DNA of 63,744 bases, filler included, from Reclinomonas americana ATCC 50394 (GCA_048213135.1; 20 parts of 20 records of this genome joined end to end with filler, not necessarily neighbours in it), one strand, 5' to 3'; counted from the first letter of the whole stretch, positions 7,460-45,481 are shown. Made by a program: numbers and translations. Notes: a model not told the origin generated them from the sequence alone.

Positions 7460-7849
7460 GATGACGACGTGCAGCACCTCGTTGGACCAGGGGACCGTGA
7501 CACCCTGAGGCAGCGGCACGCCCCTCAGGAGCGTGTTGTAGACGATGCCCGTCACGATCATGTACGAGCTCGCGCAGACGAGGAGGATCGCGAGCCAGCG
7601 CGGCTCGGGATCGGTGCTGTCGCGGTTGCGGAGCGCCCAGATCGCGGCGATGGCGAGCACGATCGCGGCCAAGAGGTTCGACTCGATCGTGAAGAAGCTG
7701 AGGAAGTTCGCGGCGACGGTGGGAATGTGGCTGCCCCAGTCGGTGGTCGCCGTGAGCCCGTTCTCGATGGAACGGCTCAGCTGCGCGATGATCGCGGCCA
7801 GGGCGAGCGCGGATGCCGCGAGTCGGGCGTAGGGCCACCAGGTCGTCAT
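7460..7849 (-). CDS. Pr6Pr-family integral membrane protein (actinobacterial), 3' truncated
   Basis: ATG at 7849 with a GGAGG RBS. Motifs NFLSFFTIESN, IVTGIVYNTLLRG and WSNEVLHVV. Confidence 0.8.
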
Positions 7850-7954
7850 TGTTCGCCTCCGCCGGTCACTGTAGCGGAACCCGTGTGTAGACCGTCGTAC
7901 CGGTATATCGATAGTGTTCGAGCGGGGACGCGCACGATGCACGGCGGAGGGCGC

Positions 7955-9391
7955 ATGAGCGAGAGCGGGACCGGTAACAGCAGCGCAGAGGCTGCGACGC
8001 GAACGCGCCGATTCCGCGGAGGCGGGCTCAGCATCCAGTCGAAGCTGCTGATCATGCTCCTCGCGGTGAGCCTGGTCTCCTCGGTCGTCGTGGGAGCGAT
8101 CGGGTTCATCAACGGCCGGCAGTCCTTGCACGACGCGGCCGTCGATCAACTCATCACGATCCGCTCGATGAGAGCGGTCGAGATCACTGAGGCGATCGAT
8201 GACGTCAAGCGCGAAGCCTCCCTGCAGTCGCGGAACCTCAGCGCGCAGACGCTCTCGAACACGATGAACGCCGCGTGGGACGAACTGCAGCAGCAGGTGG
8301 TCACCGACGAGCAGTCCGCGCAGCTCGAGGCCTACTACGCCGACACCTTCATCCCGACGCTCGAGGCGCGCGCCGGAGAGGAGTACGGCACCGAGGCGTT
8401 CATCCCCGAGTCGAACGCCGGTCGCTACCTGCAGCTGCAGTACACGACGAAGAACGAGGACTTCGACGCCGACTTCGACGAGCTGCTCGTGACCAACGAC
8501 AGCGGCGACGGCACGAGCTACGCGGCTGGGGCCGAACGATACGGCGACTACTTCACACGGCTGGTGCAGCAGGCCGGCTACGAGGATGCGCTGCTGCTCA
8601 ACCTCGACGGTGACGTCGTCTTCTCCGCCTACAAGGGCATCGAACTGGGCACGAACGTGAACACCGGTCCGTATCGCGACACCGTCTTCGCGCAGACGTA
8701 CCGCGACACGATCGCGACCAATTCGGTCGATGCGATCGGCCTGACCGACTTCGAGCGCTGGATCCCCTCGCTGAACATCCCCACGATGTGGGTCATCTCC
8801 CCGGTCGGCAACGACAGCGGCATCACGGGCGCCATGGCGCTCCAGGTGCCGGTCGACACGATCAACGCCGTGATGACCGGCAGTGAGGGATGGAAGGCGC
8901 AGGGCCTCGGCGACACGGGCGAGGTGTACCTGGTGGGTCGCGACGACCTCATGCGCAGCACCTCCCGACGTCTGGTCGAAGATCCCGAGGACTACGTCAA
9001 GCGGCTCATCAGCGGAGGGATCGCGCCGACGATCGCCAACCGCATCGGCGAGGTCAAGGGAACCGTGCTGCTGCAGCCCGTGGACACCTTCGCGGTGTCC
9101 GAGGCGCAGGCCGGACGCAGCGGCACGGTCATCGGCCGCGACTACATCGGCGGCGACAGTGTCACCGCTTACGCGCCCCTGGAGATCGAAGGGCTCGACT
9201 GGGTCATCGTCGCGCGCATCGACACCGCAGAGGCGTTCGAGCCGGTCAACGACTTCACGCGCAACGTCCTGCTGTCGCTGCTCGGCATCATGCTCGGTGT
9301 CTCCCTGCTCTCGCTGCTCCTCGCCCAGGTGTTCACCCGTCCGATCCATCGACTGGTCGGTGCCGTGCACCGCGTTGCAGAGGGCGACCTC
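7955..9391 (+). CDS. Membrane sensor protein (TM-Cache-TM-HAMP), probable adenylate/guanylate cyclase of Rv2435c type, 3' truncated
   Basis: ATG at 7955 after GGAGG. SIQSKLL followed by a TM helix, the Cache-like GLGDTGEVYLVGRDDLMRS, a second TM, then HAMP start TRPIHRLVGAVHRVAEGDL. The catalytic domain lies beyond the contig end. Confidence 0.75.
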
Positions 9392-20943: not shown

Positions 20944-21000
<57 letters not shown>

Positions 21001-21100: not shown

Positions 21101-24100
21101 CCCACAATCGTGTACGAGAACGTCTGCGCCGAGTTGCCGTCTGTGGTGGACAGAGTACCCACCACGACATCGGCAGTGGTCGGCGGCGTGTACGTCGTCG
21201 CCGACAGTGCAATATCCGACGGAGGGACGTTGGCTGTGGATCATTCGCAACGCTTCATAAGTCGCCAAACGCAACAACAACTCAATCAAAACTCTCTCGG
21301 TCGTACCTTCGTCAATGATAAGCGTCTTGTCAAAGAACAGCGACCCACTGCCGTTGTCTGTCGATCGCACAATGACCACAAGTCCGCTGCCCGTCTGTCC
21401 AGCCGCGGTGATGCGCAGCTGGTCGCCAGAGATGTTGAACAAGGCCGCATTCGTCCCGCCCACAATCGAGTACGTGTAAGTCTGGCACGAGTTCGCATCC
21501 GTTGTCGATAGCACACCAACAACCATATTTGCGGTGGCCGGCAACGCGTACTGTGTTGCCGACAACGTGATATCCGTGGGCGTGACATTGGCTGCCAGGA
21601 TAGTCGATGAGTGACCAGGCACATGCACAACACAGATCTACAGCACACACCTTCGTTGATCGTGAATATCTTGTCGAAGAACAGCGATCCACTGCCGTTG
21701 TCAGTTGATCGCACAATCACCACCAAGCCAGTTCCATTCTGACCGGCTGTCGTGATGCGCAGCTGCGTGCCAGAGATGTTGAACAGCGCCGCATTCGCTC
21801 CGCCCACAATCGTGTACGTGAATGTTTGACACGAATTGGCGTCTACCGTTGATAGATCTCCCACAACAAGGTTGGCTGCCGTCGGCGGCAAGTACGTCAC
21901 AGCCGAGAGCACAATATCAATTGGTGCAATGTTGACTGGTCAATATTGAAGAACGTAGCAGTGAGTGAAGAAAGCGAGAACAACGAGATCCATGACGTCC
22001 CAGACCTTCGTTGATCGTGAATGTCTTCTCGAAGTACAGTGATCCACTGCCACTGTCCGTCGATCGCACAATCACCACCAAGCCAGTTCCATTCTGGCCG
22101 GCCGTCGTGATGCGCAGCTGCGTGCCAGAGATGTTGAACAGCGCCGCATCGGCACCACCCACAATCGTGTACGTGTACGTCTGAGCCGAGTTGGCATCGG
22201 TTGTCGTCAGACTGCCAATCACGAGATTAGCAGTGGTTGGCGGCGTGTACGTCGTCGCCGACAGTGCAATGTCCGTCGGTGCGACATTCACTAAACAAAA
22301 GAAAACGGGCGAATGAGAAGACACATCTGAGAATGCGCTGCTCTAAGAAAGTACGAACCTTCGTTGACGGTGAATGTTTTGTCAAAGAACAGAGGTGATG
22401 CACCATTGTCTGTCGATCGCACAATCACCACCAAGCCAGTTCCATTCTGTCCGGCCGTGGTGATGCGCAGCTGTGTGCCAGAGATGTTGAACATGGCCGC
22501 ATTGGCTCCGCCCACAATCGTGTACGTGTACGTCTGAGCCGAGTTGGCATCGGTTGTCGTCAGACTGCCAATCACGAGATTGGCAGTGGTTGGCGGCGTG
22601 TACGTCGTCGCCGACAGAGCAATGTCAGTCGGTGCAACATTCACTGATCGATGGAAGAAAGCAAAGGAGTGAGAACATCAGGTGGTATGGAGAACTTGCC
22701 ATATAGGAGGACAGACAAACCTTCGTTGATTGTAAATGTCTTGTCGAAGAACAGTGGCGATGCACTGTTGTCAGTCGATCGCACAATTACCACCAAGCCA
22801 GTTCCATTCTGCCCGGCCGTGGTGATGCGCAGCTGTGTGCCAGAGATGTTGAACATGGTCGCATTGGCTCCGCCCACAATTGTGTACGTGTACGTCTGAG
22901 CCGAGTTGGCATCGGTTGTCGACAAAGCGCCGACCACGACATTGGCGGTGGTCGGTGGTGTGTATGTCGTTGCTGACAGCGCAATATCCGTCGGTGCAAC
23001 ATTCACTGATCGATGGAAGAAGGCAAATGAGTGAGAACATCAGGTGTAATGAAGAACTCGCCATCTGGGAGCACACAGACAGACCCTCGTTGATTGTGAA
23101 TGTCTTGTCGAAGAACAGCGATCCACTGCCACTGTCAGTCGATCGCACAGTCACAGCCAAGCCAGTTCCATTTTGTCCGGCCGTCGTGATGCGCAGCTGA
23201 GCGCCCGAGATGTTGAACATGGCCGCGTTCGCGCCGCCCACAATCGTGTACGTGAATGTCTGAGCCGAGTTGGCATCGGTGGTGGACAGAGCGCCGACCA
23301 CGACATTGGCGGTGGTCGGTGGTGTGTATGTCGTCGCCGACAGTGCAATGTCCGTCGGGGGAACGTTGGCTACAAATGTACGACAAACGATGAGGCCTCT
23401 TTGAACGGTGTGACAACTCGTGAGACTACCATGACCGTACCTTCATCAATGACAAGCGTCTTGTCAAAGAACAGCGACCCGCTGCCACTGTCGGTGGTGC
23501 GCACAATAACCACAAGTCCATTGCCTGTCTGTCCGGCCGCAGTAATGCGCAGCTGGTCGCCCGATATGTTGAACACGGCAGCGTTCGCCCCGCCCACAAT
23601 CGTGTACGTGTACGTCTGGCACGAGTTGGCATCGGTTGTCGAGAGCAATCCGACGACAAAGTTGGCCGTTGACGGTGGTGCATACGTAATCGATGTCAGC
23701 GCAATGTCCGTCGGCGCCACATTCACTGCACGATGAATGCGATTAATTAAGAACGGTAGGTACAGTGGTAATCAAGAAACCGGCAACGGACCCTCATTGA
23801 TCGTGAATGTTTTGTCGAAGAATAGCGACCCACTGCCGCTGTCTGTCGATCGTACAGTCACCACCAAGCCGGTTCCATTCTGCCCAGCTGTCGTGATGCG
23901 CAGCTGAGCGCCAGAGATGTTGAACATGGCCGCATTCGCCCCTCCCACAATCGTGTACGTGAACGACTGCGCCGAGTTGGCATCGGTTGTCGACAGGTTA
24001 CCAATCACGAGGTTGGCGGTGGTCGGTGGCGTGTACGTCGTCGCTGACAGTGCGATGTCCGTCGGTGCGACATTGACTGGACAGAAGGAAACGAGTGAAT

Positions 24101-27100
24101 GGCAAACCACATCTGAGAACACGCTGCTTCAAGATAATACGAACCTTCGTTGATCGTAAATGTCTTGTCGAAGAACAGAGGTGATGCACCGCTATCCGTC
24201 GACCGCACAATTACAAGCAGACCGGTTCCATTCTGTCCGGCCGTCGTGATGCGCAGTTGCGAGCCAGAGATGTTGAACATGGCCGCATTAGCTCCACCGA
24301 CAATCGTGTACGTGAATGTCTGAGAGGAGTTGGCATCAGTCGTCGACAGAGTGCCCACCACGACATTGGCAGTGGTCGGTGGCGCATACGTCGTCGCCGA
24401 CAGTGCGATGTCCGAAGGAGGAAGATTGACTACCCATCGTCAAGAGCGGTGTAAGCTTTGTTGATGCAACAGGAACAACAACGCGTGAAACCAATTGCCA
24501 TACCTTCGTCAATGACAAGGGTCTTGTCAAAGAACAACGACCCACTGCCACTGTCGGTGGTGCGCACAATAACCACCAGTCCGCTGCCCGTCTGCCCGGC
24601 CGCAGTGATGCGCAGCTGGTCGCCAGAGATATTGAACAAGGCCGCATTGGCTCCGCCCACAATCGTGTACGTGTACGTCTGACACGAATTGGCATCGGTT
24701 GTCGACAGGTTTCCCACAACCATGTTGGCAGTCGTCGGCAACGTATACGCCGCAATCGATATCGTGATGTCCGTGGGCGTGACATTGGCTGCAATCGTGT
24801 GTCGATGAGCGGACAAGCGTAAGAACACAACCATGGTCTACAAGTACACACCTTCGTAGACTGTGAAGGTCTTATCAAAGAACAGCGATCCACTGCCGCT
24901 GTCGGTTGATCGCACAATTACCACCAAGCCAGTTCCATTCTGGCCGGCTGTTGTGATGCGCAGCTGCGCGCCAGATATGTTGAACATGGCCGCATTCGCT
25001 CCACCCACAATCGTGTACGTGTAAGTCTGACACGAATTGCCATCCGTGGTTGACAGAGTGCCCACCACGACATTGGCAGTGGTCGGCGGCGCATACGTCA
25101 CCGACGAAAGCACAACGTCCGTCGGCGCAAGGTTCGCTGCACACGACACGCACGTGAGACATATGATGAGTAAAGTCACTTGCATATTGCTTGTGGCAAC
25201 ACACCTTCGTTGATTGTGAATGTCTTGTCGAAGAACAGCGATCCACTGCCGCTGTCAGTCGATCGCACGGTCACTTGATACCCATCACCGATGACACCCG
25301 CTGTTGTGATGCGCAGTTGCGTGCCAGAGATATTGAACATGGCCGCATTCGCTCCACCCACAATCGAGTATGTGAATGTCTGCGCCGAGTTGGCATCGGT
25401 CGTTGACAGGCTACCAATCACGAGGTTGGCAGTGGTTGGTGGCGTGTACGTCGTCGCCGACAGTGCAATGTCCGTCGGTGCGACATTCACTGAACAACAG
25501 AAACCGGGCGAATGAGAAACCGCATCTGAGAACACGCTGCTTCAAGATAATACGTACCTTCGTTGATCGTAAATGTCTTGTCGAAGAACAGAGGTGATGC
25601 ACCGCTGTCCGTCGACCGCACAATCACCACCAAGCCAGTTCCATTCTGACCGGCTGTCGTGATGCGCAGCTGGGCGCCAGAGATGTTGAACATGGAAGCA
25701 TTCGCTCCGCCAACAATCGAGTATGTGAACGACTGGCCCGGGTTGGCGTCTGTCGTGGACAAACTGCCGACCACGACATTGGCAGTGGTCGGCGGCGTGT
25801 ACGTCGTCGCCGACAGCGCAATGTCCGTCGGCGCCACATTCACTGCCACACAACGCATGAGACCAACAAGCACGAACAAGCATGTGCAACGTCATTCAAA
25901 AGACCTTCGTCGACCGTAAATGTTTTGTCGAAGAACAACGTTCCGACGCCGTTGTCCGTCGATCGCACAATCACCACCAATCCACTGCCTGCCTGCCCGG
26001 CTGAGGTGAACCGCAGCTGCGCGCCAGAGATGTTGAACATGGCCGCATTCGCTCCGCCAACAATCGTGTATGTGAACGACTGCGCCGAGTTGGCGTCTGT
26101 TGTCGACAGATTGCCAATCACGAGATTGGCGGTGGTCGGCGGTGTGTACGTTGTCGACGACAGTGCAATATCCGTCGGTGCGACATTCACTGCACCGCAG
26201 CGCATGAGAACTACCATCGCCTGGCAGCGAAGAAACGAAGCACAACAGACCTTCGTTGATCGTGAACGTCTTGTCGAAGAACAACGGCGGTGCACCACTA
26301 TCCGTCGATCGCACAGTCACCACCAAGCCGGTTCCATTCTGACCGGCTGTCGTGATGCGAAGTTGCGCGCCAGAGATGTTGAACATGGCCGCATTCGCTC
26401 CGCCAACAATCGTGTACGTAAATGACTGGCCCGGGTTGGCGTCTGTCGTGGACAGACTGCCGACAACAAGGTTGGCAGTGGTCGGTGGTGTGTAGGTCGT
26501 CGCCGACAGAGCGATATCCGTCGGGGATACATTCACTATCATCCGACGCATGAGACCAACAGGAACAACAAGAAGGTACCACGAAGCACAACAAACCTTG
26601 GTCGATCGTAAATGTCTTGTCGAAGAAAAGTGATCCGCTGCCGCTGTCAGTCGTCCGCACAGTCACCACCAGTCCACTGCTTGTCTGCCCGGCTGAGGTG
26701 AATCGCAGCTGCGCGCCAGAGGTGTTGAACATGGCCGCATTCGCCCCTCCCACAATCGTGTACGTGAACGTCTGCGCCGAGTTGGCATCGGTGGTCGACA
26801 GGTTACCAATCACGAGATTAGCGGTGGTAGGCGGCGTGTACGTTGTCGCCGACAGTGCAATATCCGTTGGTGCAACATTCACTGCGACGAGGCACATGAG
26901 AGCTACGATCGCTAGCGGGCACAAAAACAAAGCAACAAGCAACTGACCTTCGTTGATCGTGAATGTCTTGTCGAAGAACAGCGATCCACTGCCACTGTCA
27001 GTCGATCGCACAATCACCACTAAGCCAGTTCCATTCTGCCCGGCTGTCGTGATGCGCAGCTGCGCGCCAGAGATGTTGAACATGGCCGCATTCGCCCCTC

Positions 27101-28227
27101 CCACAACCGAGTATGTGAATGTCTGCGCCGAGTTGCCGTCTGTGGTGGACAGTGTGCCGACCACGACATTGGCAGTGGTCGGCGGCGTGTACGTTGTCGC
27201 CGACAGTGCAATATCAGACGGAGGGACGTTGGCTGTGGATTATTCGCAACAATTAACCAGTCGCCGAACGCAACAACCCAATGAAATTTTGCTGCCGTAC
27301 CTTCATCGATCGTGAACGTCTTGTCAAAAAACAGCGACCCGCTGCCACTGTCGGTGGTGCGAACGATAACCACCAGTCCACTGCCCGTCTGCCCTGCCGC
27401 AGTGATGCGCAGCTGGTTGCCAGAGATGTTGAACACGGCCGCATTCGCTCCGCCCACAACCGAGTACGTGTACGTCTGACACGAATTCGTGTCAGTCGTT
27501 GACAGCGAACCAACGACCATATTAGCTGTGGACGGCGGCGAGTAAGCGGGCATCGACAGCGTGATGTCCGTGGGCGCGATATTGGCTGCAATTGCAAGTC
27601 GATGAGTGCCCAAGCAGATACACGGCCAAAGGTCTACAAGCACGCACTTTCGTTGATCGTGAACGTCTTGTCGAAGAACAGCGATCCACTGCCGCTGTCA
27701 GTCGTCCGCACAATCACAACCAAGCCGGTTCCATTCTGCCCGGCTGTTGTGATGCGCAGCTGCGCGCCAGAGATGTTGAACATGGCCGCGTCGGCTCCGC
27801 CCACAATCGTGTATGTGAATGTCTGCGCCGAGTTGGCATCGGTCGTTGACAGAGTGCCGACAACAAGGTTGGCGTGGTCGGCGGCGTATACGTCGTCGAC
27901 GACAGCGCAATGTCCGACGGCGCCACATTCACTGCAGCGTAACGCATGAGACCAACAGGCACGACAAGCTGGTAAAACGTTATACAGACCTTCGTTGATT
28001 GTGAATGTCTTATCAAAGAACAGCGATCCACTGCCGTTGTCAGTCGAACGCACAATCACCACCAAGCCTGTTCCATTCTGACCGGCCGTCGTGATGCGCA
28101 ATTGTGCACCAGAGATGTTAAACATGGCCGCATTCGCTCCGCCCACGATTGTGTACGTGAACGACTGGCCCGAGTTGGCATCGGTCGTGGAGAGACTGCC
28201 AATTACGAGGTTTGCAGTTGAAGGAGG
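21101..28227 (-). CDS. Internal part of a giant surface protein with 21 cadherin-like repeats, one per exon
   Basis: 285-nt exons start (low coordinate) at 21307, 21651, 22006, 22359, 22721, 23085, 23441, 23792, 24145, 24504, 24852, 25205, 25558, 25905, 26251, 26597, 26948 and 27301. The exon at 27648 is 284 nt. Partial exons are 21101-21233 and 27990-28227. There are 20 GT-AG phase-1 introns of about 58-79 nt. Consensus NVAPTDIALS..VG.L.TTDAN...YTIVGG..A.FNISG.QLR...VIVRSTD.G....FDKTFTINE. Confidence 0.9.
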
Positions 28228-35478: not shown

Positions 35479-36676
35479 GCACACCAACCATCAGCGCATT
35501 GACGCCGCTGTGGGTGCCTGCCACATCCAACTCGTTCCCAGTGCAACTGGATGGGTCAAACTTGGAGGAGTCACAGTACCTGCAAGTGCGTGTGGATTCA
35601 TCAGCTGTGCCGACGTGGCGAGTGTCGACATCGCGTCTGGAGTTCCTCGCCCCGGCGCGGTCTGTCGGAGGCATAGCCACTGTCGATGTCACATACAATG
35701 GCGTGGACTACTCAGCGACCACGTCGCTGACATATTTGGGTGAGTTCACACACATGCACACACACACTCTCTCACACGCACTCGCACTCTATCATGATGT
35801 GCGTGTCTGGCTGATGGTGCGCTTGCTTGTTGTGTAGCTGCCTCCACGTTGACGGCGGTTGAGCCTGCTGTGGGGCCAGTGGGAACTGTCCGCGTGCGTG
35901 GCACAAATTTCCCCGCGGCATCCTTCGGTACCAAGTGCACGTTTGACAACTGGGAGGCGACGCCAGTATCGATCTCGAGCAGCGAACTCATCTGCAACAC
36001 CACTTCATCGACCAGCAGTTTTTCGACTGTCGGCGTCAACGTGGCCGGCAACTCCATGACACAGCAACGTGGTGGATTCGCGCGGCGTCGTGCGCCATTC
36101 GTGTCGCGGGCGTACCAGACGATGCAGTCGTGGTCAGGAGGGCGTGGTAATGTTGTGCTTTCTGGCGGCGAGTTTCGTAGTGACGGAATAGCTTGTCAGT
36201 ACGGTGCAAGCGGCCGCGGCAGCGCTGCGTTTGTGTCTTCGGTGGTAGCGGTGTGCTCGCCGCCTGAATCAAACGTGCCAGTGTCAGAGACAGTGCGGCT
36301 GTCGACGAACAGCGGCTACAACGTGACGGAGACAGCGGTTCGTGTTCGTAACGTGGACCTGCCGACGACGGTGCAGAATGTAACGCTGCCGGAGGTTGGT
36401 GGATCGACAGTCTCTTTGCAAGTGACGACCGGCAGCGCGAATTCTTTGGCCTACGCATTCGGTGACCGCGACGTGTGGTGTCAGATCGATGGCAGTACGT
36501 TTGTGCGCGGGCGGAGCATGCTGCCGCACAGCAACTTGATTCAGTGCACAGTTCCACGACTGACTGCTGGTAGTCACGGTCTCGCGCTTGCCAGCAGAGC
36601 ATTTACGCAGATGTCGACGGCGGTGGTGTCATTGCAGATCCTGTCCACCAACGTCACCGACCCAGGCACTGTAGCT
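35479..36676 (+). CDS. IPT/TIG-repeat cell-surface protein, internal fragment (exons 35479-35739 and 35838-36676)
   Basis: PTISALTP..LDGSNL..VDVTYNGVDY; TAVEPAVGP..VRGTNF..CTFD..SSSELIC; phase-1 GT-AG intron at 35740-35837. Confidence 0.8.
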
Positions 36677-36776
36677 NNNNNNNNNNNNNNNNNNNNNNNN
36701 NNNNNNNNNNNNNNNNNNNNTTAATTAATTAANNNNNNNNNNNNNNNNNNNNNNNNNNNNNNNNNNNNNNNNNNNN

Positions 36777-39328
36777 ATGCATCGGGCGGTGAAGGAATTA
36801 CTCTGCAAACTGGTGGGTCGGCGACACTCCCGTGGCCAGCTGGTGCTGCCAAGGCGCAGGTGGTGTGCTGGTTTGGGCGTTCCGTCGTGAACCGCGGATG
36901 GGTTGTTGACAGCGGTGGAGTGGTGTGTGACTCTGGAGTCGGTGGCCTTGGTGCTGGATACACGGCGGTTGAGGTGCAGTGGACGAATGATGCATGGGGT
37001 ATGGAGTCATTGTTGACTGGGAGTGCAAGCGTTCATGTTGTTGAGGCGCTCGTGGTCAGAGATTCTCCGTTTGTTGGTGGCGTTCTGTGCCGTGAATGTC
37101 GTGTTTCTGAGGCAAGTGGACAGTATAGGCGGCGTCGGCAGGTTGTGCTCGTCGGCGGGCAGTCGCTGCGCAGTGAGTCAGGAGGGTTTGGCCAGCCGGT
37201 TTTGTGTGTCTATGGCGGACGGGTGGCAACCGCGAGTGCAGAGGTGTCGTCGGTGATGCGGGCTTGCCTGCTTCCTGGCATAGACGATGAGACAAGCCGT
37301 GCTACAGACAGTAATGTCGGCGGCAGCGTTGCACTTGGACTGGCTGAGGGGACTGGCGATCGGGACGGTGGGTGGCAAGCAGAAGCGCGGTGGACAAGCG
37401 TGTGGTTGACTGTGTCTGAGCGTGTGAGGCTCTCTGACTGGAAGCTGGTAAATTTCGGGAGCGGCCATATTCGTTTGGAGCTGCAGAGCGTGAATGATGA
37501 TGTCATGTACGGGCGTGTTCGTTGCGTGTTCGGTGGACAGACGGAGGTTGACGCGGCAGTTGTTGAGCGACGACTGGGGACTGTGGTGCTGCAGTGTGAG
37601 GCACCACTGATTAAGGAGAATCGGGCGTTGACGTTTAGCACCGTAGGCGGTGATGTTGATGAGTTTATCGGCGACGGTGTGTACATGGCCAACTGGCAAG
37701 TGAATGTGACTGGAATTGTTGGGGGCAGCGGCGAAGCTGGCGGTCAAGTTGTGAGCGGCGACGGTGTTGTGTGCGCTGTCGGATCGCAGATTGTGCCTCT
37801 GTGGCAGAGTGCTCTGCTATCTCAGGATTACAGTGTTTTGGTGGACGGTGTGGCCGATGCTGTTTCGCGACTGGGTGTGGGTGCAGGTTTCCGTGTTGTC
37901 GAAGTTGACGTCTGGGGAACTGGGGTATCGTTGCTTGCGTTGGAATGTCACGAAGAGGCGCTTGTGTTCCAGGTGCATCCAGATCGGCTGACGTCGAGCT
38001 CCGGAGTCCGTACGCCGGTGACTGTAGTGGGTGTGAACTTTGCGAGGATTGAGAGCGAGGCTGCGGCACAGCAAGCCAGTTTCATGTGTCGGTACGGTGG
38101 AACCGGATCGGGCGGCGAGTCGCGAGGTCGATGGGTATCGAGCACCACGGCGGTGTGTAACGAGGGACCCGCTGTGCGTGAGTGCGACGAAACGGCCGAG
38201 GGGAAGTCGTCTATTGTTGGTGTGGAGGTCAGTAGCGACGGGTGGATGTGGAGCACCAGTAGGATAGGTACACGGTTGCAGCGTGCGTGCGGCATGGCAG
38301 AGGGACTGACCATCGGCTCTGGAAGCGCGTTGACTGGTAGTCGTGGAGAGCGCATTCGTCTGGATTTCCGACGACAGTTGCAGTCGTGGGAAGCGTGGTG
38401 GTGTGTTGCTGGTGGCAAGACACTGATTTCCAGTGAGGTGGTTGACGGATCGGTCGAGTGCGTGCTCCCAGAGCTTGCGGCAGGAGTGTATCACGTGGGC
38501 CTGTCGGCGTACAGTCGTAGTGTTCTGAATGGTGACGACGCAGGCTATGTCGCTGTTGTTGTGAGCGCGAGCACGAACGTCACAAGTGTGTTGCCGAGTG
38601 TTGTGACGCAGTCGTCGGGTGCGTTGCTGTATGCGACTGTGGACGGAATTACGGCGCTTGACGTTGAGTCGAGTCGGCGACATGTGTTTGTGGGTGCGAG
38701 TGCTGTTGTCGTCGGTGACGTCGTGTTGGGCAGTGGTTTCTTCGGCGGCAACGGAGTGAGTGGTGGCGGCTTGTTGCGTGCTGGTGCATCGGTGCTTCAA
38801 GTACACTTGCCGGCGGCTGTGAGCGACGGGTTTGCGACTGTGGAGGTCGGTATGGTGGAAAGCAGTAGCGGACGTGTGACGAGCAACGGTGTGCAAGTGG
38901 AAGTTCGAGAAGCGGCTGCAGTCAGCGGGTTGCTGCCAGAGCGAGGTAGTAGCACTGGTGGGACGCTTGTGAGCATTATGGGACGAGGACATCACGGTAG
39001 TGACGATGGGCGAGCTTCATGTGTGTTTGGCGGACGCCGTGGAAGCAACGACTACGGTGCAGTGTTGTCGTCGAGATTTAGTGTGTGTGTGAGTCCTGCG
39101 CGTGTGACTGGCGGCAAGGGTGAAGTTGGCCTGCATGACGGATCTCGTGGTGAGGGTGGTTGGGGGACGGCGCCTGGCGCGGTGTTTGTTTGGGAGGATG
39201 TTGCTGCAGGCGCATATCCGCCTGCGCAGTATCTGAGTGCTGTTGGCGGTCAGGACTTGCGGATTGCAGTGACTGTGGGGGGTGAACAAGTCGTCGGCTC
39301 GGTCGTAGGCAAGTGTCGTTTTGGTGGC
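36777..39328 (+). CDS. IPT/TIG-repeat cell-surface protein, internal fragment (open through the whole contig; probably the same gene as the previous fragment)
   Basis: About 850 codons without a stop. Repeats include QVHPDR..VTVVGVNF..CRYG..VSSTTAVC..VEVSSDG and LLPERGSSTGGTLVSIMG..CVFG..CVSP. Confidence 0.8.
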
Positions 39329-39428: not shown

Positions 39429-39488
39429 GCGAAGGGGGTGGAGTTGCGCCAGTCCTATACCCGGGTCGGCAAGCTCGCGCTGACCTGA
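39429..39488 (+). pseudogene. IS5-family transposase remnant
   Basis: AKGVELRQSYTRVGKLAL followed by a premature TGA. LRQSY.RVGK is an internal IS5 transposase motif. Confidence 0.55.
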
Positions 39489-39541
39489 ACCGATATGCCT
39501 GCTCCGAACCGACACCGTTTCACGAAGCTCGAAAGGACGAA

Positions 39542-39778
39542 ATGGCGGCCGAGATTCGTCTGCAGATTGAGCAGTCGAAGGCGACACTAGAAGAACATGT
39601 CGGCCGCCTTTACGAGCGTACCCGGCCGGCGGACGGCCCCGGGGCGCTCGCCCCTTCAAGGCGAAATCGAATACTTGCTCGCTCGAAGGATCGGACGCAC
39701 GGCATGGCCGCGATCATCGGGCTGGAAGCCTGGTCACAGGGCGCGCAGTTGTTGTTCGTTACGGAAACGCCGGGCTGA
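39542..39778 (+). CDS. Hypothetical protein (78 aa)
   Basis: ATG preceded by AAGGA; fills the intergenic gap. Confidence 0.4.
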   Translation: MAAEIRLQIEQSKATLEEHVGRLYERTRPADGPGALAPSRRNRILARSKDRTHGMAAIIGLEAWSQGAQLLFVTETPG

Positions 39779-39843
39779 CCCATTCACGAAGGATCCTTGG
39801 AGGTCACAGACAGTGACCTCGCGCCGGGCTCCGATTTCACTTC

Positions 39844-40962
39844 TTACAAGATGCCCCAGGCGCGATAGCTCCGCCTCCCCGTCATCTCGCGAACACCAAG
39901 CTCCGTGATCAGATTGAGCGCACCTCGCGGCGTCACACCCGCCACTTTCGCGACCATGGCGGCCGAAACGATCGGCCGTGACAGAATCAACTCGATTGCG
40001 GCCGGAAGGCTGCTGGTCGAGCGGCGGCCGCGGAGCTTGCGCTCCATAAGCTGGCGAGCCTGATCGAGCCGGGCGATCTCCTTCATGCCCGCCTCCGCCG
40101 CGAGGCACATCGCATCGAGGAAGGCGAGCAATCGCTTAGTCCGATCGCGAGAACGCCGCCTCTCGCGAGATACGGCTTTCAGCCCGACGTTGAGCGCAGG
40201 CAAATGCGAAACGACCTTGCCCCGGGCCCGTAGAACGCCAGCGGTGAGTTGTCCCCCGAGCCAGTGCAGCCGCTGCAGCGGCTGCATGATCTCCCAAGCG
40301 TCAAACAGAACCGCAGCCGACAGCACCGGTGACAGAGCAGCTGCATCCCTTCGCACATCGTGCCATCGGGACAGCCGGTCCTGTTCGTCCCACTCTGCAT
40401 CGCGAATGACGAGCTCGCCCACGACGAGCGATGACTTCTCGGGAACGGTAGCCGGCGCCGGCGTGTTGATCCCGTCCAGAACGCGCCGCGAGCGTTCGAG
40501 CATCGCATCAATGTGTGCGAGCTCGCGAGAAAGCGGATCATCGTCTTCATCAGGAGGTGCCTCGCCCTCCCCTCCCCTCTCATCAGCAACACCTGGTGCT
40601 TTCGGCGAGGTGATGCGCTCGGCACCCGTCAGAGCCGACATGCCGGCTTCGGAAACCGCCCACCCGGGCTCCGCGCCAACGATGCGACGTCGCGCGCGAA
40701 GGATGCCATGGCCGATGACCAGTTCATGGGTTGGCGATCGGATATCCATATGGGCGTCATGAAAGACCAGGTCCTCGATGTGGAGGAGCTCGCCCGATAT
40801 CCACATGCTGGCGGCCGCATCGAGGAAATGCCCGCGCTCCGCGAACCCCTCCCCGACCGGGCTTCGACGCACGATTTCATCGAGCCGGGCTAGTTGGTCC
40901 TCAGCCCGCGCCACGGCAGGAAGCAGAGCCTGAAGCGGCAGTTCGCCGATTTCATAAATCAT
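39844..40962 (-). CDS. RHE_PE00001-family protein (Fic-like N-terminus, DUF1612, C-terminal HTH) of rhizobial plasmids
   Basis: AEDQLARLDE, EDLVFHDAHMDIRSPTHEL, LGVREMTGRRSYRAWGIL. Confidence 0.85.
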   Translation of the reverse strand: MIYEIGELPLQALLPAVARAEDQLARLDEIVRRSPVGEGFAERGHFLDAAASMWISGELLHIEDLVFHDAHMDIRSPTHELVIGHGILRARRRIVGAEPGWAVSEAGMSALTGAERITSPKAPGVADERGGEGEAPPDEDDDPLSRELAHIDAMLERSRRVLDGINTPAPATVPEKSSLVVGELVIRDAEWDEQDRLSRWHDVRRDAAALSPVLSAAVLFDAWEIMQPLQRLHWLGGQLTAGVLRARGKVVSHLPALNVGLKAVSRERRRSRDRTKRLLAFLDAMCLAAEAGMKEIARLDQARQLMERKLRGRRSTSSLPAAIELILSRPIVSAAMVAKVAGVTPRGALNLITELGVREMTGRRSYRAWGIL

Positions 40963-41245
40963 TGTAAACGCGCCGCTTCGCTATCGATACAGAAGCTAAA
41001 ACAACTTTCATTTCCGTCACATCGATATCTTTCCTTCGTACTCGTGATGGGTAGAGCTCGCTGGCCCTCCGGATTGAACAGAGCTATCTCGGGCGTGCCT
41101 CAGATCGACGAGAAGCCCCGATTTCATTGGGTTTTCGAGTGGCCAACCCGCCGGAAATAACACCTAGAGACGTTTACAAACGATCGGTTATCCGTATCTT
41201 CTGCATTTGGAAAATCGCCGCTCGGCGTTCTCTCAGGCGCTCCAA

Positions 41246-42202
41246 ATGGCTCGCGACACCCAAAATCGAGCTTCCCGTCGACCGCAGGGCCGCCTGATCG
41301 GCTATGCACGGGTGTCGACCGACGAGCAGACGACAGAAGCGCAGGAGATCGAACTGCGCCCGGCCGGCTGCGATCTCATCGTCCAGGAGCACGGTTCTGG
41401 CGCATCGCGTGCTCGGCCAGCCCTGACGAAGCTACTGCGGGAGATCGGCGCCGGCGACACGCTCATTGTCGTTCGGCTCGACCGCCTGGCGCGCTCCGTC
41501 AGCCATCTGCTCGACGTGATCGAGGATCTGACGGAGAAGGGCGCCCATTTTCGTTCGCTGCGCGATCCGATCGATACGACGACGCCGCAGGGCATGTTCT
41601 CGCTGCAGGTCCTCGGCGCCGTGGCGCAGCTCGAGCGCGCGCTGATCTCCGAGCGGACCAAGGCCGGCATCAAGGCCGCGAAGGCCAAGGGCCGGCTTTC
41701 CGGCAATCCTGGCATTCGCGAGCGCCGACCAGAGATGCTGGCGAAGATGACCGCGGCGCAAAAGGCAGCCTATGGCGATCGCGTTCAGGCGACGGCGAGC
41801 CAATGGCTGCCGACGGTCAGGCGCATGCGGCCGGATCATAACTGGGACGACGTCGCCCGCGTGCTGAAGCAACGCGGCTTCGACTGGACTCCCGAGCGCC
41901 TGCGCCGCGCCGTCAAATGGCTGGTCAGCGAGCACACGGCCGACCGGACCCTCCTGCGGAAATCTCCTCCGCGCCTCCCGGAGGATCGCCTGGTCACGCT
42001 GGTGGCCGGCATCCACGTATCGAACCCCACCCTGACGCTCCGCGAGATCGCAACCCAGCTCGAACGGCTGCACGAGCGGACGCCGCGCGGCGGCTCGAAA
42101 TGGTCGCCCTCCTCCGTGAAGAACCTGATCGACCGCGCCCGTCGTTCCGGCTTGATCGCCGGTGACGGCAACGCTCCCACAGCCGGCGTAGCTCAGGGGT
42201 AG
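41246..42202 (+). CDS. Serine recombinase (resolvase/invertase) with extended C-terminus
   Basis: LIGYARVSTDEQ, VVRLDRLARS, AQLERALISERTKAG, C-terminal TPRGGSKWSPSSV. Confidence 0.92.
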   Translation: MARDTQNRASRRPQGRLIGYARVSTDEQTTEAQEIELRPAGCDLIVQEHGSGASRARPALTKLLREIGAGDTLIVVRLDRLARSVSHLLDVIEDLTEKGAHFRSLRDPIDTTTPQGMFSLQVLGAVAQLERALISERTKAGIKAAKAKGRLSGNPGIRERRPEMLAKMTAAQKAAYGDRVQATASQWLPTVRRMRPDHNWDDVARVLKQRGFDWTPERLRRAVKWLVSEHTADRTLLRKSPPRLPEDRLVTLVAGIHVSNPTLTLREIATQLERLHERTPRGGSKWSPSSVKNLIDRARRSGLIAGDGNAPTAGVAQG

Positions 42203-42213
42203 GCTGGTCCTCA

Positions 42214-43452
42214 TCACGACCGCGGCTTCTGCAGGCTCTTCAGCAGCGACGCCGAGGCCTGGATGCGGGGTTTCTCGTCCGAAGAGCCGTCCTCGGCCNN
42301 NNNNNNNNNNNNNNNNNNNNNNNNNNNNNNNNNNNNNNNNNNTTAATTAATTAANNNNNNNNNNNNNNNNNNNNNNNNNNNNNNNNNNNNNNNNNNNNCG
42401 TGCTGCTCACCCATGACCTCGCGCGCTTCACGCCAGGCGCTCGGGCTGATGCCGAGCGACGGCCGGGCCAGCTCCGCTGCCGCCAGGAAATCGCGCCAGT
42501 GTCGGATTTCGCCGCCTTGCGCCAGATCCCGCAAGTTCGGGCAGGCATCGAGGACGATGCCAAGAGGCAGTTCCCGCTTCGGCAGGCTCCGCACGTTGTC
42601 GGTTTCCGCAACGATGGCGGCCGCTTCTTCACTTTCCGAAAAGCCGTGTTCAGATTCAGATAGGGGATCTGGATTTGAATTCTGTATGTGGCGCCCAAAA
42701 TGGGACTCATTGCCATCCGGATTCTGAGCTTTCATAAAGGATTCCAGCACGTCACGGATCTGCGTGCAGAGATCTTGCAGATCGGTGCAGATAGCCTCCA
42801 CGAGCTGCCTGGGAGCCGTGCGGGGCAACCGGCCGATGATCGCCTGGTAGGTCTGCTGGACCCGGCCCCAATTGCCCGGAACACGCTCCTCGATGCCAGC
42901 GTCAATCATCTTGACGATGTCCCGGCGCAGCAGCGTGAGCCGTTCCTTCGCGACACGAAAAGCCTTCTTCTCGGCGTGAACGGCCTCCGCCAGGTCTTTG
43001 ATCTCGTCGGCGCGTGCGACGATCGGCGCGAGGTCGAACCCGTAGGCCTGCTCGATCTCCCCTCCCCTCCCCTTCCTGGCGAAGCGCTTGCCGTTCGGGC
43101 TATCCCGGCGAACGATCAGACCGCAATCGACGAGCACCGCGATGTGCCGCCGCAGCGTCGTCGCCGGCATGCCGTTGGCCCGGGCCATCAATTGCTCGTT
43201 CGACGGCCAAACGACGAGCTCGGCGTCGCCCGTGAGCGCGGTTTCCGGATGGAACGTCAGCAGTGCGTTGAGGATCGCAAGCGAGCGATCCGTCGCGCCG
43301 AGGAGCTCCCTCGCCACACGGATGTCCTGGAAGACCTGCCACTTGTGCACGACGGCATCGGGCTTCGCGGCCTTTGCCGTCATCTGAGTTGAAATCTGGC
43401 CGAGCGTCATCGGCCGCCGCCCAAAGGGCGTCGTTGTGATGTGCGAGAACAC
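42214..43452 (-). CDS. repC: Plasmid replication initiator RepC (interrupted by a gap)
   Basis: GTG at 43452; TTPFGRRPMTL, VWPSNEQL, RRDSPNGKRFARK, AYGFDLAP. Probable C-terminus (ASASLLKSLQKPRS*) at 42214-42298 on the preceding contig. Confidence 0.95.
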
Positions 43453-43519
43453 GTTCCTTTACCTTTTGTTAGGCAAAAGAATCCGGCTCGCCAAAACGGC
43501 ACTGCGTTCGACGTGACTC

Positions 43520-43548
43520 TTGACAGCGATTCGCGGAAGTGTGATTCT
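43520..43548 (+). promoter_or_regulatory. ctRNA promoter
   Basis: TTGACA-17 nt-GATTCT, matching the conserved repABC ctRNA promoter. Confidence 0.85.
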
Positions 43549-43554
43549 CAGGCT

Positions 43555-43606
43555 GCTTACACGAGAGAAGGGCTTCCGGAATTCGTTTCGGGGGCCTTTT
43601 TCTTTT
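43555..43606 (+). ncRNA. repABC counter-transcribed RNA (ctRNA)
   Basis: Antisense in the repB-repC intergenic region, after the promoter; hairpin followed by a T-tract. Confidence 0.85.
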
Positions 43607-43611
43607 GCGGG

Positions 43612-44604
43612 TTACACCTGCGTTTTCTCCTGCTGAAGAAACTCTCCATAGAGGGCGTCGAGACGTTCAGCGAGGAATCGCCCGAAACGGGCGGAATCCT
43701 TCGACTTGAACGCGACGGAAAATGTCTTCCCGGTGTCGACCAATTCGGCCGCTAAGGCTTTGTCAGCCGGCTGCCATTTAGCTTTCGCCGGTTTATCGGG
43801 GCTGGCGCGCCGCGGCTTGTCCGCCTTCTTCAATTCTCCGAAGAGCATCTCAAATCGCACTTCGGAGGTCGCCGCCAAAAAAACCGTAGTTTGGCAGACC
43901 TGCGAGAGCGTCGAACGATTTGAAGGCTTCTCGTAAAGCTGCGCAAACTCCAGCCAGCGGTCACGACCAATCGATTTGGCCGGGCCAATGAGCAGGAGTA
44001 GATCCTCTTCAATGCGCCCCGACACCGAGAGCATTCTCGTCAGCATTGGAGCGTCGACCGACAGGGCAGTTTGGACTGTCCCACGATCATGGCCGCGCCC
44101 GATCAGACGCTGAGCGAAAAGCGCACGCTCAATAAAAGTAAGATTCTCGCGAGCGGAGTTTTCTTGGCCCTGCGCGATAACATGCTCTTCGTCAGAGACA
44201 TTCCGGACAACCGCTTTGACCTTTCGGCCAAGCTGCCGCGCTGCTCGCAGCCGCCGATGTCCAAACACCGTTTGGTAGCGCCCGCTGTCGTTCGGATGCG
44301 GGCGAACGAGAATCGGCGTGTCCTGCCCTCGCTCTCTGATGCCGCTTACGAGCTCTTCGAACGCGACATCGTCTTGCGTCAGGCGATCGGAGACAAAAGA
44401 ATCTTCGATTCGATCCGGATCGATCTCTTGAACGACCTCACCGTCGATCGACGCCTCGGCCTGCGCGGCCTTTGCCGCGAGCTCGTTGATCGAGGCCAAC
44501 ATATTCTTGCTGGCACCGCGGGAGGCGTAGCCAGGTGCGGCCGCCCTATCCGATTGGCTTGTATCGACTTCCTTGATTGCCCGGAAAATATCACGGCGCG
44601 CCAT
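43612..44604 (-). CDS. repB: Plasmid partitioning protein RepB (ParB family)
   Basis: GQDTPILVRPHP, FGHRRLRA, QGQENSARENLTFIERA. Confidence 0.95.
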   Translation of the reverse strand: MARRDIFRAIKEVDTSQSDRAAAPGYASRGASKNMLASINELAAKAAQAEASIDGEVVQEIDPDRIEDSFVSDRLTQDDVAFEELVSGIRERGQDTPILVRPHPNDSGRYQTVFGHRRLRAARQLGRKVKAVVRNVSDEEHVIAQGQENSARENLTFIERALFAQRLIGRGHDRGTVQTALSVDAPMLTRMLSVSGRIEEDLLLLIGPAKSIGRDRWLEFAQLYEKPSNRSTLSQVCQTTVFLAATSEVRFEMLFGELKKADKPRRASPDKPAKAKWQPADKALAAELVDTGKTFSVAFKSKDSARFGRFLAERLDALYGEFLQQEKTQV

Positions 44605-44682
44605 ATTGGCACCTCCGAAATGCATTTAAGGTTCTGAGTTTCAATGAGAAAAGCTCGATCTGTACGGCTGACAATTCCGTCA

Positions 44683-45448
44683 TCAGCGTGCCCGTCCCCA
44701 GCTTGTTTCGATGAGAGAAATCACTTCGGAATTAACAGCGTCGAGAGATTCCCGGGCTCGGTCATAGGTCGCCGGCGTGAACGCCGAGCGTTCGACCTCG
44801 TAGAGGGATTGTTTGGTCAGGCCCGCGTCGGAGATTGCCGTGGATTTGACCATAGGGTTCTTCAGCATCTGTCGGGCAAACATGAGTTGCATGAGCCCCA
44901 CCATCTCCTGCTGGGGTACGTCCCCGGGCTCAAAGCGCGTGACGAGATAACGAAACCAGTCGAGCGAGACTTTCGCACCGGCGTTCTCGATGCTCTTCAG
45001 AATATCGCCGAGCATGAGCAGGAACTGACCCATGGACATGATATCGAGCATTTGCGGGTGCACAGTGATGAGAACCGACGTCGCAGCAGCTAGAGCAGTT
45101 AGGGTGAGGTACCCGAGTTGTGGGGGGCAATCGACCACCACGACGTCGTACTGATCATCGACTTCTTCCAGCGCCGCCCCCACACGCGTAAAGAACGTGC
45201 GGCCAGCAGTCGGATCCTTTGCCCGCATCGCGATCGGCGTTTCGTACTCGTATTCCTGGAGTTCCAAGTTCGCCGGCACAATGTCGAGGGCAGGGAAGTT
45301 CGTTTTCTGAATGACCTCTGTTAGCGGCTTGCGCTCGCTGTCGTAGCGCAAGGATTCATAGAAGGAGAGATTTTGGTCGATCTCCGGCTGAATCCCGAAA
45401 AGGCGTTAGCGAGGCCTGGGGATCGAGATCGACGGCGAGTACCCGATA
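44683..45448 (-). CDS. repA: Plasmid partitioning ATPase RepA (ParA family), 5' truncated
   Basis: VVDCPPQLGYLT, TVHPQMLDIMSM, KSTAISDAGLTKQSLYE; upstream of repB and repC. Confidence 0.95.
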
Positions 45449-45481
45449 CGTATAACGTTCGTATAGCATACATTATACGAA
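45449..45481. other. 454 paired-end (loxP-containing) linker remnant
   Basis: CGTATAACGTTCGTATAGCATACATTATACGAA at a contig end; it cuts repA off mid-gene. Confidence 0.9.

Follow-up and report, generated by a model that had tools for sequence, protein, structure and literature searches.

A probable fragment of a spliced eukaryotic gene with at least 21 cadherin-like domains, one per symmetric exon, of a subtype shared with euglenids

Introduction

Cadherin-type repeats are usually seen as an invention of animals and choanoflagellates, with look-alikes in bacteria. Metazoan cadherins carry their extracellular cadherin (EC) domains in tandem arrays, and acidic residues in motifs such as XEX, DXD and DXNDN bind Ca2+ between the domains. 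Bacterial adhesins are also built as head-to-tail arrays of many copies. A different kind of repetition is known from the genes of animal extracellular proteins, where phase 1-1 exons with 'one exon, one module' are the pattern of exon shuffling. To our knowledge, animal cadherin genes are generally not organised with one exon per EC domain. Here, we describe a tandem array comparable to those of the animal cadherins and the bacterial adhesins. It occupies positions 21101..28227 of a 63,744-nucleotide stretch of DNA, hereafter the window, from Reclinomonas americana ATCC 50394 (GCA_048213135.1). In this array each exon encodes one cadherin-like domain.

A protist group outside the animal line, the oomycetes, is also described as having cadherin-type repeats, which are part of multi-domain proteins. 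The cadherins of Pythium ultimum and Phytophthora are reported to retain both calcium motifs, LDRE and DxND, and to pass Pfam (PMC2926784). Compared with these oomycete cadherins, the window repeat is without motifs of the LDRE/DxND type and fails Pfam. Our results suggest that the array is probably an inner piece of a genuine nuclear gene of a microbial eukaryote, which is spliced and encodes a very long extracellular protein of cadherin-fold repeats. Its repeat belongs to a subtype shared with euglenids.

Results

Organisation of the array

The window is a chain of 20 separate contigs of 1.2-7.1 kb that were joined by 19 identical artificial 100-base spacers (N44-TTAATTAATTAA-N44). Two of these N44-TTAATTAATTAA-N44 linkers flank the array contig at 21001-21100 and 28228-28327, and its neighbours in the window are therefore not its genomic context. 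With Tandem Repeats Finder a single array was detected at 21324-28218, with a period of 353, 19.6 copies, 71% matches and a score of 4328. The coding strand is the minus strand. The exon map was anchored on the conserved VR(S/T)TD codons and every boundary was checked. The contig holds the fragment of one gene and consists of the repeat array only, with 21 exons and 20 introns. Exons 3-20 are exactly 285 nt long (18 exons), exon 2 has 284 nt, and exons 1 and 21 are cut. Since both array ends are contig ends, 21 repeats is a minimum.

All 20 introns run from GT to AG and are 58-79 nt long. The last exon base is a G at 19 of the 20 borders and an A at the remaining one. Every exon-intron border is in phase 1: an exon closes with the first base of a codon, and the remaining two bases open the next exon. 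The introns are located in the linker between the domains, between ...FTINE and (V/A)N(V)APTD. The 18 whole domains gave a consensus of 95 residues, NVAPTDIALSATTYTPPTTANxVVGxLSTTDANSAQTFTYTIVGGANAAMFNISGxQLRITTAGQNGTGLVVIVRSTDSGSGSLFFDKTFTINE, with a mean column identity of 88%. A preliminary description of this DNA had counted at least 21 domains, 18 exons of 285 nt, one of 284 nt and two truncated ones, with 20 introns that are all in phase 1 and at the domain boundary. Every count agrees with our exon map and border check, and the repeat motif given there, N.APTDI.LS...VRSTD.G...KTFTI, is present in the consensus.

Three types of domain were distinguished, with type A as the majority. Type B domains contain NSCQTYTY, AAGQTGSG and usually KTL(V/I)IDE, and type C domains begin with N(V/L)PP(S/T)D. 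A pair of one B and one C exon occurs four times (exons 3-4, 11-12, 14-15 and 20-21), and 6, 1 and 4 type A exons lie between the pairs. The introns form homologous families, which are introns 8/12/17 (76-84% identity), 15/16 (85%), 2/10/19 (71-76%), 3/20 (75%) and 1/5/6/7 (69-76%). The features of the contig are the following, in the direction of the coding strand.

21101..28227, minus strand: whole contig, repeat array of 21 exons and 20 introns, assembly breaks at both ends
27990..28227, minus strand: exon 1, 238 nt, type A domain, 5' part lost at the contig end
27932..27989, minus strand: intron 1, 58 nt, GT-AG, CTCAT 15 nt from the 3' end
27648..27931, minus strand: exon 2, 284 nt, 1-nt deletion that shifts the frame, donor A|GT
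27586..27647, minus strand: intron 2, 62 nt, family 2/10/19 (71-76% identity)
27301..27585, minus strand: exon 3, 285 nt, type B domain (NSCQTYTY, AAGQTGSG)
27233..27300, minus strand: intron 3, 68 nt, 75% identity to intron 20, without CTYAY
26948..27232, minus strand: exon 4, 285 nt, type C domain (NVPPSD)
26882..26947, minus strand: intron 4, 66 nt, the sole intron that leaves the frame open if retained
26597..26881, minus strand: exon 5, 285 nt, type A
26536..26596, minus strand: intron 5, 61 nt, family 1/5/6/7 (69-76% identity)
26251..26535, minus strand: exon 6, 285 nt, type A
26190..26250, minus strand: intron 6, 61 nt
25905..26189, minus strand: exon 7, 285 nt, type A
25843..25904, minus strand: intron 7, 62 nt
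25558..25842, minus strand: exon 8, 285 nt, type A
25490..25557, minus strand: intron 8, 68 nt, family 8/12/17 (76-84% identity)
25205..25489, minus strand: exon 9, 285 nt, type A
25137..25204, minus strand: intron 9, 68 nt
24852..25136, minus strand: exon 10, 285 nt, type A
24789..24851, minus strand: intron 10, 63 nt, family 2/10/19
24504..24788, minus strand: exon 11, 285 nt, type B
24430..24503, minus strand: intron 11, 74 nt
24145..24429, minus strand: exon 12, 285 nt, type C
24077..24144, minus strand: intron 12, 68 nt, family 8/12/17
23792..24076, minus strand: exon 13, 285 nt, type A; the query domain and the domain of the structure model
23726..23791, minus strand: intron 13, 66 nt
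23441..23725, minus strand: exon 14, 285 nt, type B
23370..23440, minus strand: intron 14, 71 nt
23085..23369, minus strand: exon 15, 285 nt, type C
23006..23084, minus strand: intron 15, 79 nt, 85% identity to intron 16
22721..23005, minus strand: exon 16, 285 nt, type A
22644..22720, minus strand: intron 16, 77 nt
22359..22643, minus strand: exon 17, 285 nt, type A
22291..22358, minus strand: intron 17, 68 nt, family 8/12/17
22006..22290, minus strand: exon 18, 285 nt, type A; forms the closest exon pair with exon 17 (dS 0.26)
21936..22005, minus strand: intron 18, 70 nt
21651..21935, minus strand: exon 19, 285 nt, type A
21592..21650, minus strand: intron 19, 59 nt, family 2/10/19
21307..21591, minus strand: exon 20, 285 nt, type B
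21234..21306, minus strand: intron 20, 73 nt, 75% identity to intron 3
21101..21233, minus strand: exon 21, 133 nt, start of a type C domain (NVPPSD), cut by the contig end

Intron features

A CTYAY branch-site motif was found in 17 of the 20 introns, 15-31 nt from the 3' end. When the introns were shuffled (n = 500), the motif was present in 3.25 introns on average and in 9 at most. The introns are rich in T (36% vs 21% in the exons) and have a GC content of 0.43-0.57. Their mean pairwise identity is 61%, and their lengths vary while the exon length is invariant. If the introns were retained, 19 of the 20 would shift the reading frame or bring in a stop codon. The features of spliceosomal introns are thus found together: GT-AG borders, a branch-site motif, a pyrimidine-rich composition and a consistent phase. 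No excess of secondary structure was detected in the introns in comparison to mononucleotide shuffles (mean z +0.37). The nonconventional and intermediate introns known from euglenids were also considered and ruled out, since all borders are GT-AG and the folding was no better than that of the shuffles. For Euglena gracilis, intron lengths of 52, 157 and 230 nt are given in a published study (PMC6221363).

These features allowed us to weigh the possibility that the array is an artefact, i.e. a bacterial contaminant contig or a mis-assembly in which the 'introns' are chance spacers. The window does include bacterial contigs (with repABC plasmid genes at 39429-45481 and GC-rich sequence at 52684-58375), and the array contig has only repeats. 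However, all 20 spacers are bordered by GT and AG, though these make up only 7.3% and 3.3%, respectively, of the dinucleotides in the contig. The excess of the branch motif and the frame shifts or stops in 19 of the 20 spacers also stand against chance. The codon-position pattern described below is confined to the 285-nt blocks, and the copies, being 70-90% identical, are not collapsed. The contig has a GC content of 0.55, like the contigs bearing microsatellites or introns (0.53-0.58) and below the bacterial ones (0.59-0.66). An artefact is hardly credible with this evidence.

Divergence between the exons

The 18 whole exons share 70-90% of their nucleotides, with a mean of 78%. The differences between the copies amount to 0.16, 0.08 and 0.40 per site at the codon positions 1, 2 and 3, respectively. 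When the 153 exon pairs were analysed by the method of Nei and Gojobori, the median synonymous divergence (dS) was 0.82 and the minimum 0.26, found for exons 17 and 18. The ratio of nonsynonymous to synonymous divergence (dN/dS) had a median of 0.146 and a maximum of 0.278. We conclude that the exons are old and under strong purifying selection.

It has to be asked whether the array is decaying or dead, with exons that are no longer expressed as one protein. Exon 2 lacks one base when compared with exon 13 (in GACCA-CGCC), which shifts the frame within the exon, and this exon ends with the donor A|GT. Past the deletion, the shifted frame still reads a normal domain. In contrast, 18 of the 19 complete exons have exactly 285 nt and an open frame, all 20 pairs of splice sites are intact, and in none of the 153 pairs does dN/dS exceed the low maximum given above. 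The single deletion is in a short run of C and may be an assembly error. A dead array is accordingly very unlikely.

The order of the exons and introns gave a picture of how the array has grown. The introns before and after the first and the last B-C pair are related to each other (intron 2 to 19, and 3 to 20). From the related introns and the recurring B-C pairs it follows that the unit of duplication was an exon plus its intron, and sometimes a block of two exons. Neighbouring exons are not systematically the most alike. The depth of the synonymous divergence indicates that most of the growth is old. Amplification by exon duplication, as proposed in the preliminary description, is supported in the form of exon-plus-intron units by the identical position and phase of the 20 introns and by the intron families (71-85%). 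With symmetric exons throughout (phase 1-1), the reading frame would survive both unequal crossing-over and the skipping of an exon, which is a property of the gene only.

Fold of the repeat

The Pfam Cadherin family PF00028 was not passed by the window domains. One of three single domains scored 13.2 bits (E 0.12) with a cutoff of 28.8, and the other two had no match. There was also no Pfam Cadherin match for a two-domain open frame of 313 residues that reads through intron 4, and no NCBIfam match for two domains. When the profile of the 18 window domains was compared with the solved structures by sequence, only a chance-level match to VP4 was obtained (E 0.91). Weak Pfam matches to Beta-tre_PLH30 (E 0.017-0.00074, below the cutoff) were rejected as noise, since the fold search was unambiguous.

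The domain of exon 13 was then modelled with AlphaFold2. The model has seven strands and was predicted with a pLDDT (predicted local distance difference test) of 93.6 and a pTM (predicted template modelling score) of 0.84. In a search of 48,161 chains with VIA-align, the best 50 entries were all EC domains of the cadherin superfamily, from cadherins and protocadherins. They had Z scores of 11.1-9.2 and root mean square deviations of 2.1-3.0 Å, and 88-94 of the 94 residues were aligned. With Foldseek, among the matches listed, all were cadherins or protocadherins; the best E was only 1.5e-3 and TMq was 0.54-0.74. As modelled, the repeat is a seven-strand beta-sandwich of the cadherin fold with the topology of an EC domain, and the model and the structure searches agree with the earlier naming of the domain as cadherin-like. 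The metazoan EC domains of PCDH15, CDH23 and the clustered protocadherins have the same fold (Z 9.2-11.1 over 88-94 residues), whereas their identity to the window repeat in the structural alignments is 8-22% and there is no match at the level of sequence. An array, as is typical for the cadherin superfamily, is present with at least 21 consecutive repeats of 95 residues, and its site would be extracellular.

Homology to bacterial adhesin repeats

A profile of the repeat matched 608 proteins of 166-2000 residues at E ≤ 1e-3. Compared with the first query domain, the best 120 of the 608 proteins have 29-51% identity, and no entry without PF00028 was noticed among them. All 30 entries that gave an organism name, among the matches listed, were from bacteria. 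The bacteria named were Rhodopirellula and other Planctomycetota, Bacteroidota with tails of the type IX secretion system (T9SS), Chloroflexota, Anaerocolumna, Microvirga and Moorena. No holozoan or oomycete cadherins, which as best hits would refute a horizontal transfer according to the preliminary description, were among the named entries. In a search of 1.84 billion representative proteins, 7463 matches were found at E ≤ 1e-3 and 745 at E ≤ 1e-30.

Prokaryote genomes were scanned as well and gave 12 loci, with the best one in Alishewanella longhuensis (54% identity over residues 1-92). This single domain scored 85.5 bits with the hidden Markov model (HMM) of the window repeat. The best bacterial protein in a locally scored set was a cadherin-domain protein of Paenibacillus with 80 bits. 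Overall, single bacterial domains reached 74-86 bits, an identity of up to 54% and E values of about 1e-22. When a eukaryote-type and a bacterial-type profile were aligned with hhalign, the probability was 99.9 and the E value 2.1e-32 over 91 columns. Five loci, all with at most 48% identity, were found when metagenomes were scanned for close relatives. The nearest clusters in the ESM Atlas are clusters of cadherin-domain proteins, which are bacterial where taxa were recorded. The bit scores, the hhalign result and the absence of a sequence match to metazoan domains bear out the view that the repeat is nearer to the repeats of bacterial adhesins than to metazoan EC domains.

The homology to the adhesin repeats of Planctomycetota, T9SS Bacteroidota, RTX-type proteins, Paenibacillus and Alishewanella extends over the whole domain with 40-54% identity, and the blocks APTDI.LS, FNISG and VR.TD.G are common to both. 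There are also differences. The bacterial repeats have 97-100 residues in uninterrupted open reading frames (ORFs), whereas the window repeat has 95 residues and is split by spliceosomal introns. The uninterrupted ORF of a prokaryotic gene is not found here, as 20 GT-AG introns interrupt it. Further, the bacterial proteins pass PF00028 (1e-76 to 1e-83 per protein), which the window repeat fails to do.

Relatives in euglenids

Single domains of the matched proteins were scored locally with the window HMM, and four proteins scored above all bacteria in that set. P0121 reached 147 bits (74% identity) and P0122 140 bits (65% identity). They are single-domain ORFs of 141 and 116 residues, respectively. 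Exactly at ...FTIND-G and before (A)N(V/A)APT, the domain gives way to intron-like residues that are unrelated to it. These limits suggest that the same structure of one exon per domain exists in at least two other organisms.

The other two proteins are from euglenids. P0260 (98 bits) is in a cluster with transcriptome proteins of Eutreptiella gymnastica (UniRef100_A0A7S4CZF8) and E. braarudii (EP00670_P004976), and P0318 (86 bits) is a transcript protein of Euglena longa (EP00668_P002443). The clusters of 10 proteins were looked up; 2 were euglenid, 1 had a Paenibacillus member, 2 had function names only and 5 were without a name. P0260 and P0318 are orthologues with 43% identity over about 2050 residues. 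By HMM they have 9 and 8 diverged domains, whose scores average 54 and 45 bits, respectively. Downstream of the repeats lies a Cys-rich C-terminal part of over 1000 residues where Pfam sees only Big_5. The record of P0260 places it on a contig of 575,665 bases, as a gap-free ORF of 2199 residues with 99.95% identity to the transcript-derived proteins. If this contig is genomic, the Eutreptiella gene is without introns in the repeat region, unlike the gene in the window.

An alignment of 103 domains was made from 18 window domains, P0121 and P0122, 6 euglenid domains and 77 bacterial domains. The euglenid rows are those of 17 domain hits that cover the model from end to end. The bacterial rows are the best full-length domain of the 45 top proteins and of every sixth of the remaining 192. 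In this alignment, a deletion of 3 residues and one of 2 residues are common to the window domains, P0121, P0122 and the euglenid domains, and to these only. In addition, a Y(T)PP(S/T)xAN motif (YTPPSTAN-type) is present in the window consensus, in P0122 and in the euglenid cluster, where bacteria have xEN. Outside of that group, among the 244 proteins scanned, the motif was matched only once each in the bacterial-type proteins P0273 and P0331. The euglenid proteins P0260 and P0318 are of the same derived subtype as the window repeat and carry their domains in tandem at the N-terminus. Their domains are strongly diverged from one another, whereas the at least 21 copies in the window are homogeneous (88% mean column identity).

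Taken literally, the preliminary description would mean that a bacterial adhesin repeat entered this genome in a recent, private horizontal transfer, gained one boundary intron and was then amplified. This would fit with the nearest named long relatives of the first profile search, which were all bacterial among the matches listed, and with the 54% identity of the Alishewanella match. The 20 introns, which are alike in position and phase, are as expected when a single intron gain is followed by duplication. However, the derived subtype, marked by two deletions, the YTPPSTAN motif and the loss of acidic columns, is present in transcripts of Eutreptiella and Euglena longa, and the same domain type is found in P0121 and P0122; an acquisition that is private to this genome does not agree with that. 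In addition, no bacterial row was found inside the eukaryote group in the trees described below, and the median dS between the copies of the array has already reached 0.82. We consider a private transfer quite improbable.

Phylogeny of the repeat

A tree of the 103 rows was calculated with LG+G4. It split the 26 eukaryote-type rows from the 77 bacterial rows with a support of 99 in the Shimodaira-Hasegawa-like approximate likelihood ratio test (SH-aLRT). For a mixture-model tree we used 32 rows, consisting of 6 of the 18 window domains, P0121 and P0122, the 6 euglenid domains and 18 named bacterial domains. The same split, here of 14 and 18 rows, was supported at 100/99 with a branch length of 0.52. 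Both trees are unrooted. Neither group nests in the other. The trees point to one origin for the eukaryote subtype, as judged from these domain sequences. The preliminary description had proposed an HMM search and a phylogeny of the repeat; taken together, they gave the failed match to PF00028, the strong bacterial homology and the 100/99 split from the bacterial repeats.

The position of the two groups relative to the animal cadherins was studied with profiles. At E ≤ 1, the profile of ten bacterial domains reached 98 solved sequences; the 60 that were listed all belong to the cadherin superfamily (CELSR1 with 6.6e-23, Pcdhb8 with 1.9e-12). When the profile of ten eukaryote-type domains was used, no solved cadherin was found, and the only match was CFAP161 (E 0.4). 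Since the bacterial profile reaches the cadherins and the eukaryote-type profile does not, yet both match each other, the bacterial type is central, and the eukaryote type branches off from it as a derived one. This indirect argument and the contrast between a very wide distribution in bacteria and a narrow one in eukaryotes make an old transfer from a bacterium to a euglenid the more likely course.

Without any transfer, the domain could have descended vertically from an ancient cadherin-like domain of eukaryotes, or the bacterial repeats could be derived from eukaryotes, and the bacterial look would come from the composition of the databases. Such a course is consistent with unrooted trees of two reciprocally exclusive groups, with a fold that is the same as in metazoan EC domains and with the non-animal cadherins reported for oomycetes (PMC2926784). 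It is at odds with the profile results, in which the bacterial type sits between the eukaryote type and the metazoan cadherins, and with the failure of Pfam Cadherin on the window domain. Moreover, the bacterial relatives count in the thousands and come from several phyla, whereas among eukaryotes named relatives were seen in euglenids alone, for 2 of the 10 clusters that were looked up. We therefore regard descent without transfer as unlikely. We slightly favour the view that the euglenid line acquired the domain type from bacteria, prior to the split between Eutreptiales and Euglenales. Of the earlier proposal of a bacteria-derived domain, the closeness to bacterial repeats has held, and the timing and the exclusiveness have not, as the subtype is shared and the copies have a dS of 0.82; the direction of the transfer is what we infer.

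Loss of acidic residues

Ten columns are acidic (at least 60% D or E) in the 77 bacterial domains. The window repeat keeps four of them (columns 6, 31, 83 and 92) and has lost six (columns 2, 16, 33, 50, 68 and 70). The bacterial repeats keep these residues, for example E16 (99%), D50 (92%) and E70 (96%). The losses include the Glu of the XEX position (99% in bacteria) and the D.E pair (79% and 96%). Conserved acidic motifs for Ca2+ binding at the junctions (XEX, DXD, LDRE, DXNDN) were not found in the window repeat. Similarly, the positions of the Ca2+ ligands between metazoan domains are mostly non-acidic here. No oomycete protein was among the named relatives, neither in the matches listed nor in the 10 clusters looked up. 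With most of the acidic residues lost, the subtype would bind little or no calcium.

Other genes on the joined contigs

Two contigs at 39429-45481 encode DUF1612/HTH_13, a resolvase, RepC, RepB and a ParA-like ATPase, which are genes of bacterial plasmids. The RepC part matches a Bosea plasmid with 87% identity and plasmids of Bradyrhizobium with about 81%, and the contigs are probably from a contaminant or culture associate of the Rhizobiales. Another two contigs at 52684-58375 (GC 0.65-0.66) are likely bacterial as well. They have long uninterrupted ORFs of bacterial-type families, namely an alkaline phosphatase, a class I methyltransferase, a GreA/Rnk-like factor and a metallo-beta-lactamase-fold protein. 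The contig 7460-9391 (GC 0.66) is open for 675 codons on both strands, and its plus-strand frame matched dCache_1 below the Pfam cutoff (39.6 vs 45 bits).

A gene for a CobW/ZigA-like GTPase is located at 59031-61011 on the minus strand. It has several in-frame, intron-like insertions, one of about 190 nt that starts with GTGAGG. Its best relatives, with about 50% identity, are bacterial ZigA proteins of Chloroflexota, and it may be another bacterial-like gene in a eukaryote genome. On the plus strand of two contigs at 35798-39328, long open frames rich in G, V and S contain IPT/TIG domains (E 3.5e-12 and 9e-8) and have a strong positive GC skew (0.23-0.26); possibly they encode another large repeat-containing surface protein. 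Runs of (GT)n, (GA)n or (CT)n are found at many ends of eukaryote-like contigs (20947-21000, 45582-21, 49679-738 and 62221-306), such that the assembly seems to break at dinucleotide microsatellites. In the window, no match to Rfam was obtained.

Discussion

We propose that the array would serve a secreted or surface protein as a long stalk or spacer, glycosylated and probably Ca2+-independent. It may have grown by repeated tandem duplication of exon-plus-intron units, including the two-exon B-C blocks. This growth would have occurred long ago and would have been followed by strong purifying selection.

Several points weigh against this explanation. As the contig contains nothing but repeats and breaks off on both sides, it shows neither a signal peptide nor an anchor nor any further domain of the gene. 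A secreted or surface protein is suggested by the domain type, the tandem design and the N-terminus of the Eutreptiella homologue, which is hydrophobic when judged by eye. The splicing of the 20 introns is strongly indicated, from the sequence alone. The one other intron-bearing gene that was inspected in the window, the CobW/ZigA-like one, has a GTGAGG donor and a longer intron of about 190 nt. The frameshift in exon 2 may come from an assembly error or else indicate decay. By tblastn, the window domains have only about 43-47% identity to the Eutreptiella protein. When P0260, P0318 and their cluster members were used as tblastn queries, no match was found elsewhere in the window and none to their C-terminal region. 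The trees are unrooted with two reciprocal groups, and a transfer from bacteria is plausible from the distribution of the domain. That the subtype is probably Ca2+-independent follows from the loss of residues only. The Alishewanella longhuensis repeat (L006:501-788), which is 54% identical, is also without the xEN Glu and the D.E pair. A partial loss of the acidic set thus appears to occur within bacteria, too. The same Alishewanella repeat has an SGSG insertion before its last strands.

A more far-reaching scenario can be drawn, which we consider speculative and rather doubtful. A bacterial repeat would have been captured by an early euglenid and turned into a Ca2+-independent building block. 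It would then have received an intron in the linker and been expanded to a giant array, whose symmetric exons would vary the length of the stalk by skipping or recombination. If this were true, protists would have a counterpart of the modular animal extracellular proteins whose length can vary, built from a bacterial part. With bacterial origin and length variation both true, the gene would be a model for how foreign modules are fitted into eukaryotic gene structure.

The euglenid-type repeats add a third, previously unannotated group to the cadherin-type domains. This group is missed by Pfam Cadherin, and its euglenid members carry only the Big_5 match. It is linked to the animal cadherins only via the bacterial repeats and via the fold. 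In a literature search by title and the start of the abstract, no publication on cadherin-like repeats of euglenids was found.

Compared with the described systems, the finding is a variation on cadherin-like repeats and on modular genes with symmetric exons, which are both already known. One module per symmetric exon is a gene design normally tied to animal extracellular proteins. As in the phase 1-1 genes of animals, a symmetric exon in the window encodes one extracellular beta-sandwich module, and duplication or skipping keeps the frame. In contrast to these genes, the array is from a protist, its introns are very short (58-79 nt), and it is a homogeneous tandem array instead of a shuffled mosaic. 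In conclusion, the array is a clean and datable protist case in which exons were amplified together with their introns, and each symmetric exon holds one module.

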